Below the pieces are notes generated by a model, which saw only the letters and a program-made list of their open reading frames with translations, was not told where the DNA came from and did not search any database. Of a DNA stretch of 24,985 nt, positions 16,134 to 24,985 are shown one piece after another (positions within the stretch are counted from its first letter, which is position 1; each line of letters begins with the position of its first letter). The stretch spans positions 1 to 24,985 of the forward strand of contig JAFWDK010000025.1 of NCBI GenBank assembly GCA_017513085.1, read 5' to 3'. The translations under genes were made by a program, and so were the position numbers. This stretch comes from Clostridiales bacterium. GTDB taxonomy: Bacteria > Bacillota > Clostridia > Saccharofermentanales > Saccharofermentanaceae.

Positions 16134-17264
16134 TTATTTTCCAAACATGCTCTTGACCCGGTCGAAGAAGCTGCCCCGCTTCTGGTAATTCTTCTCCGTC
16201 AGAGTCGAATCGAAAGAACGAAGCTTGTTTTTCTGGTCGTCCGTCAGTTTTACAGGCACTTCAATAATGAATCGTACTGTATGGTCGCCACGCACACCGG
16301 CTCTGTTCTTAAACGGAATACCCTTGCCTCGAAGCGTCAGCGTGTCGCCCGGCTGGGTTCCTTCTTTCACATGTACGGTCTGCTCACCATCGATCGTCAC
16401 CACATTCACATCGGCGCCCAGAGCAGCCTGGGTAAATGTGATCGGCACTTCGCAATAGGTGTTGTTGCCCTGTCTCTGAAGGATCGGATGCGGCTTTACA
16501 CGGAACTGGATATAAAGTGTACCATACGGACCGCCACGTGTGCCCGGCTCACCTTCGCCGGAGATCGGGAGCATATCTCCCGTATCCACACCGGCAGGAA
16601 TGTGGACCTTCAGTTCTTTTCGAATAACAGCACGGCCACGGCCACGGCAGTTCGGACACGGATTCTTGATCACAGTACCACGGCCGTTACAAGCCGGACA
16701 GTCACGCGTCACCATCGTCATACCGAAGAGAGTCTGTGTCTGTTGCTGGATACGTCCGCTACCACGGCAGGTCGGACAGGTTTCCGGATTGGAACCGGCC
16801 GCTGCGCCGGAGCCCTTACAAACGCCGCAGATGTCTTCCTTGTTGATCGTAATGGTCTTATCGACACCAAACGCCGCCTCCATAAAATCCAGCGACATAT
16901 TGTACTTAAGATCTGCGCCACGCTGCGGACCATTGTTTCTTCTTCCGCCGCCGCCAAAAGCACCGCCGAAGAAAGATCCGAAGATATCGCCAAGGTCCAC
17001 GGCTGTTCCGTTAAATCCGGAGAAGCCCTGACCATCTACGCCGGCATGACCAAACTGGTCGTAAGCACGGCGCTTGTCCGCATCGGAAAGCACTGCATAG
17101 GCCTCGTTGCACTCTTTGAACTTGGCTTCCGCTTCCTTATCACCTGGATGAAGGTCCGGGTGATACTGCTTCGCCATCTTTCGGTAGGCTTTCTTTAATT
17201 CTTCATCGGAGACACCTTTGTTGACTCCTAAAACCTCATAATAATCGCGCTTTTGCTCAGCCAA
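16134..17264 (-). CDS. dnaJ: Chaperone DnaJ
   Basis: J-domain with HPD, G/F region, four CxxCxGxG motifs; TTG start after an AAGGAGG RBS. Confidence 0.98.
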
Positions 17265-17293
17265 AGCTTCTTCCTCCTTGTTAGTAGCAACGG

Positions 17294-17322
17294 GAGGCTG
17301 TCACGAAATCACGCGCAGCCTC
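17294..17322 (-). other. Intercistronic hairpin between dnaK and dnaJ
   Basis: GAGGCTG...CAGCCTC inverted repeat with no strong U-tract; possible mRNA stabiliser or attenuator. Confidence 0.45.
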
Positions 17323-17379
17323 ACCATCACGTACATCTTTTTTCTTTAGATGAGGTTATCTTGTTTAACCTCTACAGGA

Positions 17380-19873
<2,494 letters not shown>

Positions 19874-19914
19874 AATGTTAACTCCTTTTCATTAGATATA
19901 TTTTCGATTACTCG

Positions 19915-20511
19915 TCAGTTTGCTACTTTAACTACCGTGTGGCGGATAACTTTACCTTTGCAGGTATATCCCTTCTGGAACACCTGTGCGATCTCCTGTT
20001 CTCCAAGAGAGTCATCTTCCACATGCATTACGGCTTCGTGAAGGTTCGGATCGAAGCTTGTACCTTCTTTTCCTTCGATCTCCTCGACACCCAGCTTACC
20101 CAGGACACTTCCTGCCTGCTTGCCGATCAGCTTGATACCCTCGGCGACCTTCTCAACAGAAGATTCATCCATATTCTCGGAAGAAGCCACGGCACGCTCG
20201 ATATCGTCTACCAAAGGAAGCCACTCTTTAACCACTTCTGCCACAGCATCCGCGTAGATCGCTTCTTTCTCCTTCTGTGTACGTCTTCTGAAATTATCAT
20301 ACTCGGCCAGAAGTCTCATGTAACGGTCCTTCATCTCAGCAAGTTCCGCATCTTTACTATCTTCTTCAGACGTCTCCTCGGATCCTTCCGACCCTTCATC
20401 TTCCGGAAACTCCAGAACATCTTCATCGGAAGACTCTTGCTCTTCCGTTTCCTTGTTCTCTTCCGGGAGCTCTACGTCAAGCTCTTCGTCTTTTTCATGT
20501 TTCTTCTTCAT
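19915..20511 (-). CDS. grpE: Nucleotide exchange factor GrpE
   Basis: Acidic N-terminus, RLLAEYDNFRRRT, FDPNLHEAV, QKGY...VIRH..VKVAN. Confidence 0.97.
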   Translation of the reverse strand: MKKKHEKDEELDVELPEENKETEEQESSDEDVLEFPEDEGSEGSEETSEEDSKDAELAEMKDRYMRLLAEYDNFRRRTQKEKEAIYADAVAEVVKEWLPLVDDIERAVASSENMDESSVEKVAEGIKLIGKQAGSVLGKLGVEEIEGKEGTSFDPNLHEAVMHVEDDSLGEQEIAQVFQKGYTCKGKVIRHTVVKVAN

Positions 20512-20536
20512 TTCCTAGCCTCTTTTCCTATTGCTA

Positions 20537-21580
20537 TTATTGTTTCAACTTCTCATCAAGCATCATACGCACAAAATTGATCTGCGAAATGACCTTACTG
20601 TATTCCATTCTCTTCGGTCCGATGACCCCGATGTTTCCGGCCACCTTCCCGCCAACGTTATATGTCGTCGTGATAAAGCTGCAATCATCCAGACCCTCGA
20701 GCGTGATCTCCTGGCCGATCCGGATCATGTACTCTTTCTTCTCATCCTGCTTGGTAACTTCATCAACGTATCCCGCTACCAGACCGTCATGCGAAAGCGT
20801 ATCGAAAAGCCCTTGCGCCCGCTTCGTATCGGAGAACTCCGGGAGGGACAGCATCCTGTGCTTGCCCTGCATATACACGTCCAGGTTATCCGCCTGCTTG
20901 ATCGCCGTATACGCCTCGTAAAGCACTTGATTCAGCAGTGCTTCCGGAAGCTCGACTTTCTGGTTGTCTTTTGCCGCCGTAGCGACCGTGATCAATGAGA
21001 TTTCAGAAAGAGGAAGTCCGCTTAATCCCTGTTCCACAGCGTTGGAGATCTGCGCGATCTGTTCCTGTGTCAGAAAATCCGGTATACGGACCATACGGTT
21101 CTTCACGACGCCGGCCGAAAGCACAACGACCACCAGGACCTTACCCGGTTCGATCATGAGCATCTTCAGCTGAGTCAGATAACTGCTGGTAAGCTTCGGA
21201 GTCATCGCAAGGGAAATATAACCGGTCTGATCTGCCAATGCAGTAGAAGCCGCCTTCAGAAGCTCCGCGATCTCATCAAAGCTGACACTCAGCTTCTCTT
21301 TGATCTCTTTCCCTTCCGCATCAGAGAGACGGTCGACCTTCATGAGGGAATTTACATATTCGCGATAGCCCTTGTCCGAAGGTATACGGCCGGCAGATGT
21401 ATGCGGCTGCTCAAGATAGCCCATGCGCTCCAGTTCCGCCATATCATTACGAAGAGTCGCGGAACTGACCATAAAATCATGGCGATCGATCAAAGCCTTG
21501 GAACCGACAGGCTCACATGTGGCTACATAATCATCCACAATAGCCTGGAGCACTTCTTTCTTACGATTGTCTAAAGCCAT
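20537..21580 (-). CDS. hrcA: Heat-inducible transcription repressor HrcA
   Basis: LDNRKKEVLQAIVDDY, PVGSK, SATLRNDMAELE, QPHTSAGRIPSDKGYR, GVIGPKRMEY; ATG at 21580 after AAGGAGG. Confidence 0.97.
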   Translation of the reverse strand: MALDNRKKEVLQAIVDDYVATCEPVGSKALIDRHDFMVSSATLRNDMAELERMGYLEQPHTSAGRIPSDKGYREYVNSLMKVDRLSDAEGKEIKEKLSVSFDEIAELLKAASTALADQTGYISLAMTPKLTSSYLTQLKMLMIEPGKVLVVVVLSAGVVKNRMVRIPDFLTQEQIAQISNAVEQGLSGLPLSEISLITVATAAKDNQKVELPEALLNQVLYEAYTAIKQADNLDVYMQGKHRMLSLPEFSDTKRAQGLFDTLSHDGLVAGYVDEVTKQDEKKEYMIRIGQEITLEGLDDCSFITTTYNVGGKVAGNIGVIGPKRMEYSKVISQINFVRMMLDEKLKQ

Positions 21581-21615
21581 GTCCGCACCTCCTTCGCCTT
21601 GTGTCAAAGTACGGT

Positions 21616-21642
21616 TTAGCACTCTACCTTTCTGAGTGCTAA
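21616..21642. promoter_or_regulatory. CIRCE operator
   Basis: Perfect consensus TTAGCACTC-N9-GAGTGCTAA. Confidence 0.98.
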
Positions 21643-23265: not shown

Positions 23266-23292
23266 AAAAAAACGCCCGGAGTGATCCGAGCG
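23266..23292 (-). terminator. Intrinsic terminator downstream of the putative nuclease gene
   Basis: Minus strand: CGCTCGGA-tcac-TCCGGGCG followed by TTTTTTT. Confidence 0.8.
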
Positions 23293-23479
23293 GGTGCTTC
23301 TTAATTTGAAAACGTCTTACACATTGCCTATGTCACTCAACCCCCGATTCTCTTCACACCTGCGAGTAGTTCTGCATGCAGAGGATGCCGGTGCCGATGG
23401 GGAAGGATATCGATCAGGTCCCGGATGCCTTCGTAATAAGGGTTCAGAGCCTGGATGTGACGATAGCACTCCAGTGCTT

Positions 23480-24280
23480 TTAGCAACAAAAGAGTTCCTT
23501 CGTGTTTTTGCGGATCGCGTCCATGTTCAGCGGGCTACCTTCGATGTCGTGGGTGAGGATGAGGTTTTTGCCGACGTAGATCCCGCTTTGGCGGTACTGG
23601 TCCAGTTTGACCATGTTGTCGAGGAGATATTGCGAGGAGTCGAGCTTGCCGAAATGCTCGTGGTAGATCACCTGGCGGGTCGTTTTGTGAAGCAGCGCGA
23701 AGTCGACGTATTTTACTTGCCCGTCGATGAGGACCACCGGATAGTCGTATTTGTAGGGAATGTTCATGTCAAAGTACATGTCCGCGATCATCGCCTCCGC
23801 CTTCGAACGCACTTTTTCGCCGCGTTTGGTCGAGTAGACAAGGTCTTCCGGGAATCCGGGATTGGGGACATAGGGTTGTTGCTGCCACCACGTGGCATAG
23901 GTCTCGTCATCGGCAAGCAGCGGGCGGACTAGCCTTTTGCGTGCATCATGTAGATTCGCATATACTTTTTCCGAGCTGAAAAGGATGTCCTTCTCCAGGA
24001 GCTCGTGGATGGCTTCTAGCTCGCGGCGGGAAGCTTTCAGCAACCGCTCAAGATAACCCCTCTGAGAAAGGTCCTGGGCAAGTGCTTTTGCAGAGGAATT
24101 CAGATACACCCTCTTCAACGCCGCGTCGTCTTCGATTATCTTATAAAATCGTGCGGTTTTTCTTGAATTGGATACCCAAAGCCGGCCTTCAGGCAAGTCG
24201 GCCAGATCCTTCTCTATCCTCTGGATAGCCTTCTGCAGCGCGCGTTCTCTTCTCATTAGTTGTTGAATCAGTTCTTCCAT
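23480..24280 (-). CDS. Hypothetical protein: N-terminal coiled-coil/beta-hairpin region plus C-terminal PD-(D/E)XK-like (Vsr/DUF559-type) putative nuclease domain
   Basis: 266 aa from ATG 24280 (GAGG RBS). GEKVRSKAEAMIAD...IPYKYD...YVDF...IYHEHFG...KLDQY matches the E...(P)DF...ExxG pattern of restriction-fold nucleases. Function is inferred. Confidence 0.65.
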   Translation of the reverse strand: MEELIQQLMRRERALQKAIQRIEKDLADLPEGRLWVSNSRKTARFYKIIEDDAALKRVYLNSSAKALAQDLSQRGYLERLLKASRRELEAIHELLEKDILFSSEKVYANLHDARKRLVRPLLADDETYATWWQQQPYVPNPGFPEDLVYSTKRGEKVRSKAEAMIADMYFDMNIPYKYDYPVVLIDGQVKYVDFALLHKTTRQVIYHEHFGKLDSSQYLLDNMVKLDQYRQSGIYVGKNLILTHDIEGSPLNMDAIRKNTKELFCC

Positions 24281-24608
24281 CGTTTTTCCTCTCAAATGAT
24301 GTATTTTCGACATCTCGAGGTTTCTGGAACAGCACAAACTACGTATACACAGGCAGCGGGAGCTCGGGGGCCAGTGCAGAAACACGGTTCGGGAGCCGGC
24401 GCAGCGCGCGACTAGACTGCTCGCTCTAGCAAGGCACGGCTACATAGTCGCTGAGGCAACAAAAAACCGTGCATATAGTGCCGTTGTTTCATATCAATAC
24501 ATCATTTCATTAGGATAAACACAAACATAAACTTCAAGATGAAGAATAATTATATCTAACAACGATTGACGTAAAAATGCAAGACTTTCGAGGCAGGTTT
24601 GCTTATAA

Positions 24609-24985
24609 AATCAGTGAAAACCTCATTTTCTGGTATTTACACTGATTATCTTTTCGCGTAATTGTCCTGTGTTCAGTGTTTTTCGAGAAAAACGGTGATC
24701 GCACTGACTGCTGAGAGAAAACTGTCAGTGTTTTTATGGAATACTCTGATTTCCACTGACACAGGGCTACCGGGAGTCAGTGCTTTTCGAGAAAAACAGT
24801 GATCGCACTGACTGCCGAGAGAAAACTGTCAGTGTTTTTATGGAATACTCTGATTTCCACTGACACAGGGCTACCGGGAGTCAGTGTTTTTCGAGAAAAA
24901 CAGTGATCGCACTGACTGCAGACGGAAAACTGTCAGTGTTTTTATGGAATGCTCTGATTTCCACTGACACAGGCTACCGGGAGTC
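24609..24985. repeat. Array of palindromic 37-bp units (xTCAGTG-N23-CACTGAx), 52-bp period, alternating A/B types forming 104-bp tandem repeats; truncated by the window end
   Basis: Units at 24610-24646 (divergent), 24672-24708, 24724-24760, 24776-24812, 24828-24864, 24880-24916 and 24932-24968; the next begins at 24983. Linkers are 15 nt, except 25 nt after the first unit and 14 nt after the last. Confidence 0.95.

Follow-up and report, generated by a model that had tools for sequence, protein, structure and literature searches.

As described in three papers (PMC2817692, PMC3333891, PMC8266576), REP/BIME repeats and RAYT (TnpA-REP) proteins together form the systems referred to as REPtrons. 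An earlier note on the DNA analysed here, a stretch of 24,985 nucleotides corresponding to the whole contig C21 (hereafter, the window), had proposed that a nuclease gene and the palindromic array beside it might constitute a REPtron-like element.

Other protein/repeat systems differ in the nature of the protein and in the way its target is arranged. I-Bth0305I is the prototype of the "EDxHD" homing endonucleases, a dimeric, multi-domain enzyme with a long pseudo-palindromic target; the genes of these endonucleases are located in group I introns or inteins, their target being the intron-less allele. The sopC/SopB centromere of the F plasmid and the iteron origins consist of tandem phased units, each with an inverted repeat bound by a dimer, lying beside the gene of the binder. 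In the type III toxin-antitoxin (TA) systems (ToxIN), the repeats act as an RNA antitoxin and are located upstream only, on the same strand, and the toxin is an endoribonuclease.

The gene, its protein and the adjoining array

The analysis of the window revealed the following features:

23273..23292, minus strand: terminator-like hairpin with a T-run, 188 bp past the stop codon of the gene
23480..24280, minus strand: nuclease-family gene, an open reading frame of 266 aa (start ATG at 24280, stop at 23480)
24281..24610, no strand: spacer of 330 bp between gene and array, GC-rich at ~24340-24460 and AT-rich at ~24470-24600
24611..24645, no strand: first, lone dyad unit TCAGTG-N23-CACTGA, 62 bp ahead of the regular array
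24673..24985, no strand: regular array of six dyad units with a 52-bp spacing (exact pattern and Tandem Repeats Finder)
Protein residues 1-100: predicted helical hairpin with a three-stranded beta tip at 33-60
Protein residues ~148-264: predicted PD-(D/E)xK (Vsr/EDxHD-like) nuclease domain

The start codon was chosen on the basis of the agreement among homologues. In the place of the terminator supposed by the earlier note, the gene has a terminator-like hairpin whose stem is made up of eight pairs (six of which are G-C), followed by a T-rich tail. The PDB sequence search, performed with both the protein and its profile, gave nothing meaningful and no sequence-level match to any chain; nothing beyond one chance match was retrieved from Pfam at E <= 1, and none of the PADLOC toxin models matches the protein. 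In the AF2 model (pLDDT 93.3), the C-terminal domain is predicted to adopt the alpha-beta-beta-beta-alpha-beta core of the PD-(D/E)xK superfamily, modelled with high confidence (helices 160-171 and 216-231; strands 176-183, 189-197, 204-212, and 240-246). The best Foldseek match has an E of 2e-3 and the structural matches of the C-terminal domain reach Z 8.1-8.5, the highest being with the catalytic domain of I-Bth0305I (3r3p_B, Z 8.5, rmsd 3.1, 91 aligned residues) and with Bax1 (8gy8_B, Z 8.3); the model, Foldseek and these matches together agree with the nuclease assignment originally proposed, pointing to a restriction-endonuclease-like fold. Across 96 diverse members of the family, E162, D193, and E208 never change; G211 is also a family-wide invariant, and R158, S159, K160, and H209 come close to being so. 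The (D/E)xK motif lacks its canonical lysine, reading E-H-F-G with F at that position, and K160, located like the conserved E162 in the first helix, might take its place.

Residues 143-263 also match the C-terminus of the PADLOC model PDC-S68 (positions 1094-1218 of 1221, E 2e-22). Since PDC-S68 is a single protein of ~1200 aa, and the 266-aa protein has a different N-terminus and matches it in this segment only, an identity between the two was rejected. The N-terminal domain, when folded alone, has structural neighbours without significance (best VIA Z 4.0, best Foldseek E 0.35). Among the weak Foldseek leads for this domain, integrase arm-binding domains (E 0.5 and 1.1) and an AP2 domain (E 2.2) were observed.

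The prediction of a homodimer gave a score of 0.57, while the best of three controls gave 0.00; of 30 proteins solved as one-chain pairs, 20 reach this mark, versus one of 23 single-chain structures. At least 89% of the contacts agree between runs, with a partner pLDDT of at least 81, and the predicted interface involves helices 3-25 and 68-97, the linker 99-122, and a 94:94 contact on the two-fold axis.

On the other side of the spacer lie the repeats: the ordered palindromic array proposed to begin about 330 bp from the gene was confirmed, its first unit being located 330 bp from the start codon. Seven exact TCAGTG-N23-CACTGA units are present in the window (starting at 24611, 24673, 24725, 24777, 24829, 24881, and 24933). 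In the regular array, two unit types alternate, giving a super-period of 104 bp (Tandem Repeats Finder: period 104, 3.0 copies, 95% matches). Over the 3.06-Mb genome, this pattern has 15 matches, versus none for the reversed one. The promoter and the 5' UTR presumably fall within the spacer. The scan of the array-to-gene interval for sigma-70-like promoters found no site. The GC-rich segment had been considered foldable, and possibly a structured leader; this is not supported, since, as RNA, 24281-24480 (minus strand) folds no better than shuffled sequences do (z = -1.24; 23 of 200 shuffles fold equally well or better) and Rfam gave no match at E <= 1, and a structured leader or riboswitch was thus rejected.

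The right end of the window falls inside the array. Contig C14 opens with the last 20 bases of C21, and seven further units are found there (G000:C14:1-365), so that the joined array is composed of ~14 units; in two other public DNA runs, contigs with loose ends at 24917 pass from an array unit directly into the C14 flank. The array therefore crosses the edge of the window, and its far end is located 140 bp ahead of a small gene on C14. The possibility that it belongs to an element past the right edge does not hold, the nuclease gene being its constant neighbour throughout the family. Homologues of the left-flank gene were found in 9 of 23 genomes of the genus and those of the right-flank gene in 8 of 23, never both together; one species has the right flank of the window with a different array there. 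At least four contigs of the source genome terminate in such arrays.

Distribution of the family and organization of its arrays

The family comprises 9,682 representative clusters at 50% identity (3,849 with E <= 1e-30), i.e., thousands of variants from gut and rumen Clostridia. It has no name: no Pfam or NCBIfam model matches it, and the ESM Atlas matches are "hypothetical protein" clusters only. The label DUF6788, carried by 14% of one near ESM Atlas cluster, was rejected, as Pfam scans do not confirm it, and it is absent from the papers found in a full-text literature search. A sister branch was recognised (hhalign probability 99.8, E 6e-29). Every searched genome of the source genus carries the family, mostly in several copies; the source genome harbors five, each with an adjoining array and each with different arms (among them TCAGTG, TTCATAC, and TTACGGGC).

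Loci of the family were seen, among others, in the cultured strains Butyrivibrio hungatei XBD2006, B. proteoclasticus P18, and Lachnospira multipara ATCC 19207. In the neighbourhoods of 85 loci, the family itself is the sole protein common to all. As had been noticed in the window, cas, RAYT, integrase, and Nop genes are missing from its surroundings, and so are a partner ATPase and any other conserved neighbour; no transposase family or Pfam domain matched in scans of 35 or 96 members. Carriage by mobile elements was rejected: no full-length member turned up in 72,556 plasmid records, 50,697 phage records gave one match (a doubtful phage-labelled contig of 4.2 kb), and 2.9 million viral contigs gave no confirmed locus. 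In some cases, the chromosomal position is conserved; as an example, the same three genes lie upstream of the family gene in 14-15 Lachnospiraceae loci, and in four species of the genus the gene is embedded in one syntenic block. Such long-conserved synteny of several family genes suits a host function no less than a selfish role.

The expected enrichment of palindromic arrays within 1 kb of homologues was found. The strictest test required three or more exact dyad pairs within 900 bp; none of the 267 control windows passed it, compared with 39 of the 80 loci of homologues. When the detectors were pooled, 63 of the 85 loci had an array next to the gene, the array lying upstream only in 40 cases, downstream only in 18, and on both sides in five. 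No array was detected by these criteria in the other 22 loci, several of which show sub-threshold signals at 52-54, 63, 73, or 84 bp. In the sister branch, an array lies beside the gene in nine of the 11 loci fetched and in two it does not. The upstream arrays often stop 15-40 bp ahead of the start codon and hence must overlap the promoter. Adjacency is not obligatory, since arrays also occur without an adjoining family gene.

The units are 34-43 bp long, with arms of 6-11 bp and a non-conserved centre of 17-26 bp. Within an array, loops and spacers drift while arms and spacing are kept; the arms differ between loci. When 46 arrays were aligned on their dyads, positions 11-18 bp away from the dyad carried 1.6-1.9 bits of within-array information, compared with ~0.6-0.7 bits for loops and spacers. 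A family-wide half-site frame (T-T-W-G-G-A-Y-M-A-A-A) is found at fixed distances from 19 to 9 from the dyad. The periods of the arrays (n = 63 after removal of duplicates) fall mainly at 52-54 bp (22 arrays), 62-64 (9), 73-75 (17), and 83-85 (8), that is, at whole turns of the DNA helix (5, 6, 7, or 8), with a Rayleigh R of 0.83 at 10.5-10.7 bp, whose significance is overstated because related arrays are not independent. An unbiased scan of the whole source genome retrieved 17 arrays, 16 of which have these helical spacings. Spacing in whole turns points to double-stranded DNA.

The arm sequence co-varies with the protein, a point that the earlier note had proposed to check. Over 44 loci (946 pairs), a Mantel-type test gave a rho of 0.215 (as high in 0 of 500 permutations), and the strongest correlation was that of the beta region 28-61 (rho 0.282, 0 of 500), the significance of both values being inflated by the kinship among arrays. 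In the four-species syntenic block, the proteins are 58-67% identical and the arms are wholly different (GATAAGATC, GTGGGACTA, ATAGGATC, and TAGTACC); in three of these species, a second array located 10-11 kb away has the same arms as the gene-adjacent array of that species, and where related species have arrays at corresponding places of the chromosome, these bear each species' own arms. The source genome harbors ~17 arrays (in the order of 100 units), several of them orphans; one of these, on C10, has the arms of the window. Arrays with the same arms are found there at two to five unlinked intergenic loci, with unrelated flanks and often near-identical loops, and a composite array of ~450 bp is present at four loci, three of which have in common a 130-bp stretch with 98-100% identity. 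Single units are almost never met, one case being that at C14:33902.

Candidate mechanism and rival explanations

On the basis of these sequence patterns, it can be proposed that the gene encodes a sequence-specific DNA-binding endonuclease and that the array is a row of its own sites on duplex DNA, a reading to which we assign slightly less than an even chance. The first step is, on its own, probable: one protein dimer would read one two-part dyad unit, with its neighbours helically phased. The unit would offer two half-sites of ~9 bp flanking an A/T-rich centre, the midpoint of each being ~15 bp away from it. According to the prediction, the dimer is joined via the bases of the two helical hairpins, so that the two beta-sheet tips would face away from each other; judging from the helix length, the tips would be ~100 Angstrom (~30 bp) apart. 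Since the units are spaced by whole turns, neighbouring dimers would lie on one face of the DNA, being able to pack as one nucleoprotein structure. The second step is plausible, but more tentative: the conserved active site would nick or cut inside the bound units, and the break would be repaired using other arrays of the same kind as the template. Cutting and repair of this type would explain the growth and shrinkage of arrays, the near-identical units at unlinked loci, the sharing of arms among the arrays of one genome, and the tracking of the protein by the arms across species.

The duplex binding of the first step might instead have a structural job, the nuclease fold serving for binding only or for a rare, regulated cut; in this case, the array might allow cooperative auto-repression (if it overlaps the promoter), act as a roadblock to transcription or replication, bridge arrays to one another, or represent a centromere-like anchor. 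The helical phasing and the fixed half-site frame, the arrays ending just before the start codon and hence over the promoter, the conserved positions in Lachnospiraceae and in the four-species block, the near absence from plasmid, phage, and viral records, and the presence of several orthogonal protein-arm pairs in one genome are all in agreement with this explanation, which is nevertheless rather unlikely: the (nearly) invariant E162, D193, E208, H209, K160, and R158 are unexpected in a fold used for binding only, the downstream arrays (18 of 63 positive loci) cannot repress initiation, neither a partner ATPase nor another conserved neighbour is found, and near-identical units at unlinked loci require a copying process.

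Two other explanations assign the units to single strands. Many arrays abut the open reading frame, on its 5' or 3' side, closely enough for co-transcription, and the units are able to form hairpins as single strands (-5 to -13 kcal/mol, z -1.6 to -3.3), so that a role as RNA or single-stranded DNA is possible in principle. The earlier note had considered RNAs derived from the array or the leader; the array, transcribed together with the gene or separately, would then be processed into hairpin RNAs inhibiting the nuclease, as in type III TA systems, whose ToxIN layout resembles that of the tandem repeats and the nuclease-fold gene, or guiding it, as in CRISPR or TIGR systems. Several data make this improbable: a spacing in steps of 10.5 bp is meaningless for RNA, the 89 mismatched arm positions counted on the sense strand of 254 units show no wobble bias (15 of G:T type, 30 of A:C type, 44 non-pairing), loops and spacers resemble drifting copies rather than acquired spacers, the arrays flank either end of the gene and also occupy orphan sites in all orientations, and Rfam is empty, with a leader not unusually structured. 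A transposition of single-stranded hairpins, analogous to the true REP/RAYT systems, in which the nuclease would excise and insert units on the lagging-strand template, might account for the dispersal of same-arm arrays between unrelated flanks, for the composite array at four loci, and for the five loci with arrays on both sides of the gene. It appears very improbable, as the fold is PD-(D/E)xK and not HUH, hairpins with arms of 6-11 bp around loops of 17-26 nt are weak, helical phasing and an A/T-rich centre suit duplex binding, single units are so rare, and arrays occur at orthologous sites in different species.

Returning to the endonuclease reading, its broadest version appears doubtful: the pairs would represent an unrecognised class of chromosomal element, made up of orthogonal nuclease/site-array pairs in which a dimeric Vsr-like endonuclease would polymerise on phased arrays and cut them, the resulting homing-like gene conversion keeping the arms identical, with protein specificity and dozens of sites evolving in concert. 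In this version, since the frame is fixed and the letters vary with the protein, the family would also be a natural library of re-targetable DNA-reading heads. Should the protein read the arrays as proposed, many natural pairs of protein and 9-bp half-site within one fixed frame would be available, from which a recognition code might be derived; the family would then also provide a new case of a protein and its dispersed sites evolving in concert, and possibly a new chromosome-organising or selfish element in dominant fibre-degrading rumen and gut bacteria. The association also offers a practical annotation rule for "mystery repeats" in the genomes of Clostridia, where arrays with such a very regular geometry break short-read assemblies.

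Comparison with known systems

The comparison with I-Bth0305I concerns the C-terminal domain, of which it is the best structural match; the family, however, has a different N-terminal domain, lacks an intron or intein context in the 85 loci, and has arrays of sites beside its own gene. As in plasmid centromeres, phased units with an inverted repeat adjoin the gene of a (here putative) binding protein, but ParA/ParB or Rep genes are missing, the putative binder has a nuclease fold, and each chromosome carries numerous arrays as well as several orthogonal pairs; a partition centromere of the ParB/SopB type, whose array lies by ParA and ParB genes on a plasmid or at a chromosomal origin, was rejected, given that conserved neighbours are lacking in the 85 loci and full-length homologues in the 72,556 plasmid records. 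The ToxIN systems share with this locus tandem repeats immediately by a nuclease-type gene, with a spacer between them. Here, however, the fold is another one and the spacing tracks the DNA helix; type III TA was rejected on these spacings, on the downstream-only and orphan arrays, and on the lack of a PADLOC toxin match. Short conserved repeats, regularly arranged, with variable sequences between them and a nuclease gene nearby recall CRISPR and TIGR systems. CRISPR-Cas was rejected, since the arms are inverted and not direct, the variable parts are drifting copies and not acquired spacers, and the neighbourhoods lack cas genes. TIGR-Tas was rejected as well, in view of the lack of a Nop or other Pfam domain and of periods of 52-106 bp, versus the 18-nt TIGR period given in a preprint. 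A full-text search covering the main texts of openly readable papers, and passages of one preprint, retrieved no description of this gene-array class.

The closest parallel is represented by REPtrons. In both cases, a chromosomal nuclease gene of single-copy type adjoins palindromic repeats of a class of its own, further copies of which are scattered between genes, often in regular clusters with alternating orientation; the repeat class is specific to the protein lineage, and the inheritance is largely vertical. Here, 63 of the 85 loci have own repeats next to the gene (five of them on both sides) and the same arms are found at two to five unlinked loci; the recurrence of these arms in orphan arrays elsewhere in the genome gives the analogy more weight. 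The components differ. RAYT is an HUH Y1 transposase of the IS200/IS605 type, whereas the enzyme described here is predicted to be PD-(D/E)xK (Vsr/EDxHD-like). REPs are tight imperfect palindromes of 20-40 bp occurring in more than 100 copies per genome, hundreds of them scattered; the units reported here are two-part, with a non-conserved centre, and number from tens to the order of 100 in ~17 arrays, with helical-turn spacing and several paralogous genes per genome. Membership in the REPtrons was hence rejected, on the fold, on the units not being tight palindromes, and on the lack of transposase families in the members scanned. What remains of the proposal of a REPtron-like element is the analogy in logic, and the best reading, by analogy, is that of a resident pair, i.e., a nuclease and a dispersed family of repeats, selfish or domesticated, that would follow the logic of REPtrons with different parts.

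The gene-array locus and its protein

The right-hand part of the window harbors the gene of the 266-aa protein (hereinafter, with its homologues, the family), an array of units composed of inverted arms around a loop, and a group of genes on the same strand; the array continues on another contig of the genome, C14.

Within 16134-21622, minus strand: DnaK-like and DnaJ-like ORFs, after the GrpE-like one (read from translation)
19915-20511, minus strand: GrpE-like ORF (read from translation)
20537-21622, minus strand: HrcA-like ORF (read from translation)
23292-23273, minus strand: terminator-like hairpin after the family gene
23480-24280, minus strand: family ORF, 266 aa (start set by homologue alignment)
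Upstream of the gene, between gene and array: spacer of 330 bp
Start 24611: lone exact TCAGTG-N23-CACTGA unit
Starts 24673 to 24933: six exact TCAGTG-N23-CACTGA units at 52-bp spacing
C14, from position 505, plus strand: small gene after the array

The array, comprising seven exact units in the window, does lie 330 bp from the gene, as the earlier note had it; Tandem Repeats Finder assigns it a period of 104 bp (95% matches), because two unit types alternate. The window contig (C21) ends within the array, and C14 opens with the identical 20 bases and adds seven units, up to position 365. The join is confirmed by contigs of two other public DNA runs, which pass from an array unit straight into the C14 flank, and in public DNA runs the summed contig depth in most array bins is about 2-8x that of the flanks. 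On the basis of the C14 units, the join and the raised depth, the assembled array amounts to about 14 units, and its true length may exceed this. The structured GC-rich leader that had been proposed between gene and array was not recovered, its foldability being not unusual (z -1.24) and no Rfam family being matched.

The locus is contained in public DNA runs from animal gut samples. A low-depth contig of one run matches just the 107 bp at 23366-23473, immediately downstream of the stop codon of the family gene, and diverges on both sides; it could represent a related locus or a strain arranged differently. The surroundings are ordinary for a chromosome: the minus-strand ORFs at 16134-21622 make up a putative heat-shock gene cluster, and between 12000 and 24985, the stretch read, no gene of a mobile element was noticed.

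The 266-aa protein has no NCBIfam match and a single, chance-level one in Pfam (E 0.15), and PADLOC aligns residues 143-263 with the C-terminal end of the model, 1,221 positions long, that represents the candidate defence protein PDC-S68 (E 2e-22). In the AlphaFold2 model (pLDDT 93.3), helices 2-27 and 62-96 make a hairpin in the N-terminal part, with a three-stranded beta sheet (33-60) at its tip and a linker after it; the C-terminal part is an alpha-beta-beta-beta-alpha-beta domain. The nuclease fold anticipated for this protein is supported by both structural searches: the best Foldseek rows are restriction-fold nucleases throughout, all of them weak (Bax1 at the top, E 2e-3, then R2 endonuclease, DrdV, MunI, TnsA and Hjc), and VIA-align, run against 48,161 chains, matches residues 145-266 with the catalytic domain of the homing endonuclease I-Bth0305I (3r3p_B; Z 8.5, rmsd 3.1, 91 residues) and with Bax1 (Z 8.3). 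The N-terminal part matches only generic helical hairpins within the full model and, folded alone (pLDDT 92.1), has no significant structural neighbour. Among 96 diverse members, W132, E162, D193, E208, G211 and Y218 are invariant and R158, S159, K160 and H209 nearly so; although the usual (D/E)xK lysine is replaced, the family motif being E-H-F-G, these residues look like a live active site.

The homodimer prediction passed its controls, with a score (0.57, best control 0.00) that 20 of 30 proteins solved as one-chain pairs reach, compared with 1 of 23 single-chain structures; contact agreement between runs is at least 89% and partner pLDDT at least 81. The predicted interface involves the helices and the linker, with residue 94 contacting residue 94, thus placing the two-fold axis at the base of the hairpins with the beta tips pointing apart. 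With a length of about 52 Angstrom for a 35-residue helix, the tips of the modelled dimer would lie roughly 100 Angstrom, or about 30 bp, from each other.

Family distribution and array geometry

A word-indexed search retrieved 51 clusters, all of about 266 aa and from Clostridia metagenome bins, and an exhaustive profile search 9,682 representatives at E <= 1e-3 (3,849 at E <= 1e-30). A relative is encoded in 243 of 270 candidate stretches (one genome per species), of which the best 80 loci were kept. In many of these, Tandem Repeats Finder detects arrays whose periods are 52-54, 62-64, 73-77, 83-85, 96 and 104-107 bp and which directly precede or follow the gene. The predicted enrichment of homologues for palindromic arrays was found: three or more exact 7-mer dyad pairs that do not overlap lie within 900 bp of the gene in 39/80 loci and in 0/267 control windows taken from the same loci more than 1.5 kb away. 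When a locus was counted either by this test or by a hexamer autocorrelation of 12 or more (at least 325 of 332 controls stayed at 11 or below), 63 of 85 loci were positive, with the array upstream only in 40, downstream only in 18 and on both sides in 5; the set consisted of the 80 loci, the window and four paralogues from the window genome, leaving out ten duplicates and locus L099. Among the 22 negative loci, several have peaks below the threshold (52-54, 63, 73-74 or 84 bp), and the upstream sequence is shorter than 320 bp in three. The family itself is the only protein common to all 85 loci. The next commonest neighbours, found at 13-15 of them and resembling in sequence lysyl-tRNA synthetase, GreA, a tRNA-dihydrouridine synthase and a sugar-transporter ATPase, mark conserved chromosomal positions rather than a partner gene.

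A sister branch, divergent in the N-terminal half and with the same nuclease domain (columns 16-266 aligned, hhalign probability 99.8, E 6e-29), is also linked to arrays, which have periods of 50, 61-62 and 73 bp, adjoin the gene in 9 of 11 fetched loci and are absent from two. The family occurs in all 23 other genus genomes searched, most with several full-length copies, but in only 2 of the 16 genomes that represent the order's other families; a few copies contain stop codons. The full-length protein is absent from 72,556 plasmid records, occurs once (27% identity, on an unannotated 4.2-kb contig) in 50,697 phage records and was not found with two peptide patterns in 2.9 million viral contigs; the family is therefore chromosomal. 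Plasmid matches are limited to the nuclease domain at the end of large ATPase or helicase proteins, such fusions being seen in Vibrio, Rhizobium and Sphingomonas plasmids. A 1,220-aa ORF of the length of PDC-S68, with the same domain at its C-terminus, lies at L113:2499-6161 (G012:C21), minus strand.

In many arrays, conservation is limited to the arms and the period is exact; loops and inter-unit spacers vary between units, yet resemble drifting copies. When 46 arrays were aligned on the dyad, within-array information was 1.6-1.9 bits at 11-18 bp from it and 0.6-0.7 bits elsewhere, a value to which the arm-finding seeds contribute, the constant distance from the dyad being independent of them. 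Across arrays the half-sites share a frame, T-T-W-G-G-A-Y-M-A-A-A from distance 19 to 9 (positions 16 and 15 are G in 55-58% of arrays, 14 is A in 56% and 13 a pyrimidine in 92%), and the dyad centre is A/T-rich; the window arms (TGTCAGTG) fit this frame with other letters. The periods (68 arrays, 63 after duplicate removal) fall at 52-54 (22), 62-64 (9), 73-75 (17) and 83-85 bp (8), with almost none between, and give a Rayleigh peak at a 10.5-10.7 bp repeat (R 0.83, nominal p about 1e-19, overstated since related arrays are not independent). Whole-turn spacing, a fixed half-site frame and an A/T-rich centre are expected of dimers on one face of the duplex, and not of RNA or single-stranded hairpins.

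Dispersed arrays and concerted change of arms and protein

The window genome contains five family genes, each with its own array and arms.

Family genes of the window genome and their arrays
C21 (window): arms TCAGTG; array upstream; period 52 bp
C24: arms GAGCTAATC / GATTAGA type; array upstream; period 53 bp
C15: arms TTACGGGC; array downstream; period 63-73 bp
C32: arms TTCATAC; array downstream; period 63 bp
C4 (broken copy): arms ATTACGGGTGAA; array downstream; period 63 bp

The broken copy (G000:C4:16248-17043, loci L089/L090) is in two frames, with three in-frame TGA codons in the N-terminal part; its arm class, ATTACGGGTGAA, accounts for the most arrays in the genome and the most uniform ones (C4, C7, twice on C14, C15). 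Pattern searches disclosed the window arms TCAGTG-N23-CACTGA also at a gene-less locus on C10 (an orphan array at about 38002-38357, with four exact units, eight counted by eye, and spacings of 42 and 51 bp), TTCATAC arms at three loci and 35 TTACGGG-type units at ten places; control patterns read backwards gave no match for any arm class searched. Of 17 arrays found by a whole-genome scan for any 7-mer dyad array, 16 are spaced 52/53, 63/64, 73/74 or 104/106 bp, the exception (G000:C26:705-874) consisting of five CGGTACC-N18 units at 24-30-bp spacing. The arrays of this genome lie between genes, in every orientation relative to them, and their flanks are unrelated to one another.

Four loci that differ in their left flanks share a composite array of about 450 bp (G000:C8:39503-39857, C12:56388-56809 and C32:48797-49152, all three at contig ends, and C26:169500-169951); over a 130-bp stretch common to three of them, identity is 98-100%. 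This array is made up of three to four TTTACTGG...CCAGTAAA units followed by two to three TTACGGGC...GCCCGTAA units, with small tight hairpins (GGTTAGT-N4-ACTAACC type) between units; the window genome yielded no family gene whose arms are TTACTGG. Moreover, loops of one arm class are often near-identical at different loci. Given this identity and these loops, units must be copied or homogenised between loci.

The suggestion that arm sequence co-varies with the protein finds agreement in 44 loci (946 pairs), where protein and half-site identity are correlated (rho 0.215, 0/500 label permutations as high), most strongly for the beta region 28-61 (0.282, 0/500), more weakly for the nuclease domain (0.184, 0/500) and not for the first helix (0.061, 59/500), all these tests being inflated by shared ancestry. 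Synteny provides stronger evidence. Four species of the genus have one block containing the family gene, the array, a lipase-like gene, a heavy-metal ATPase-like gene, a small gene and a gene for a 409-aa zinc-ribbon protein; the four family proteins are 58-67% identical, and the arms are GATAAGATC, GTGGGACTA, ATAGGATC and TAGTACC. In three of the four species (the contig of the fourth ends before the site) a second, gene-less array is located beside the 409-aa gene, 10-11 kb away, carrying the same arms as the gene-adjacent array of that species; in two it begins directly after the same conserved flank sequence. Since syntenic arrays carry each species' own arms, a fixed chromosomal site has different arms in different species, and the change extends to every array of a genome and goes along with that of the protein.

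In the window genome, the C10 array adjoins the orthologue of the 409-aa gene (L119:4496-5725, G000:C10:38495-39724, minus strand). At each terminus of the protein lie CxxC pairs resembling a zinc ribbon, and it also contains a long repeat region rich in Gln, Pro, Gly and Met. Conservation extends to 18 of the 23 genus genomes, and in four species its gene adjoins an orphan array. One species has the right flank of the window (83% identity) and there a seven-unit array without a family gene beside it:

L118:5695-6065 (G013:C70): orphan array at the orthologous site, period 53/106 bp, arms GACGGTA...TACCGTC

This array is upstream of the same small gene, its other neighbour being the gene of a 456-aa membrane protein.

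Possible mechanism and comparison with known systems

The most economical reading has two steps. A dimer of the protein probably reads both half-sites of each unit on duplex DNA, the array being a row of phased sites. More tentatively, the conserved active site might cut or nick bound units, and recombinational repair from sister arrays would then copy units within and between loci; this would explain why arrays expand, why unlinked loci hold near-identical units and why arms and protein change in concert. The main rival retains the binding of dimers and regards the complex as architectural or regulatory, without cleavage; conserved synteny and the absence from mobile elements speak for it, the invariant catalytic-type residues and the need for a copying process against it, and it is held to be less likely than the two-step reading.

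Weak hairpins are possible for the units; 254 units contain 89 arm mismatches, of which 15 are G:T-type on the gene sense strand, 30 A:C-type and 44 unpairable on either strand. Readings based on RNA fit the array geometry poorly and are improbable, and single-strand transposition, with the same poor fit, is still more so.

REP/BIME elements with their RAYT genes follow the same logic of a nuclease with dispersed repeats. At L040:1381-1714 and 2575-2982, as well as in L046, L076 and L081, the family gene is embedded in its array, units with one set of arms occurring on either side of it, as is typical of RAYT genes located between REPs. Of the REPtron-like element that the earlier note envisaged, the gene beside its own repeats and the dispersal of the arms are retained; differences lie in the fold of the enzyme, in the two-part duplex site, in helical phasing and in copy numbers, which place the family outside that class. 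Periodic non-coding arrays are the subject of a 2026 preprint that recovers CRISPR, TIGR and VIPR arrays and reports candidates without an identified effector from Chloroflexota and Patescibacteriota; neither passages of that preprint nor the openly accessible main texts searched yielded a description of the family or of such arrays. On present evidence, the putative nuclease family and its phased arrays represent a new kind of gene-array system.
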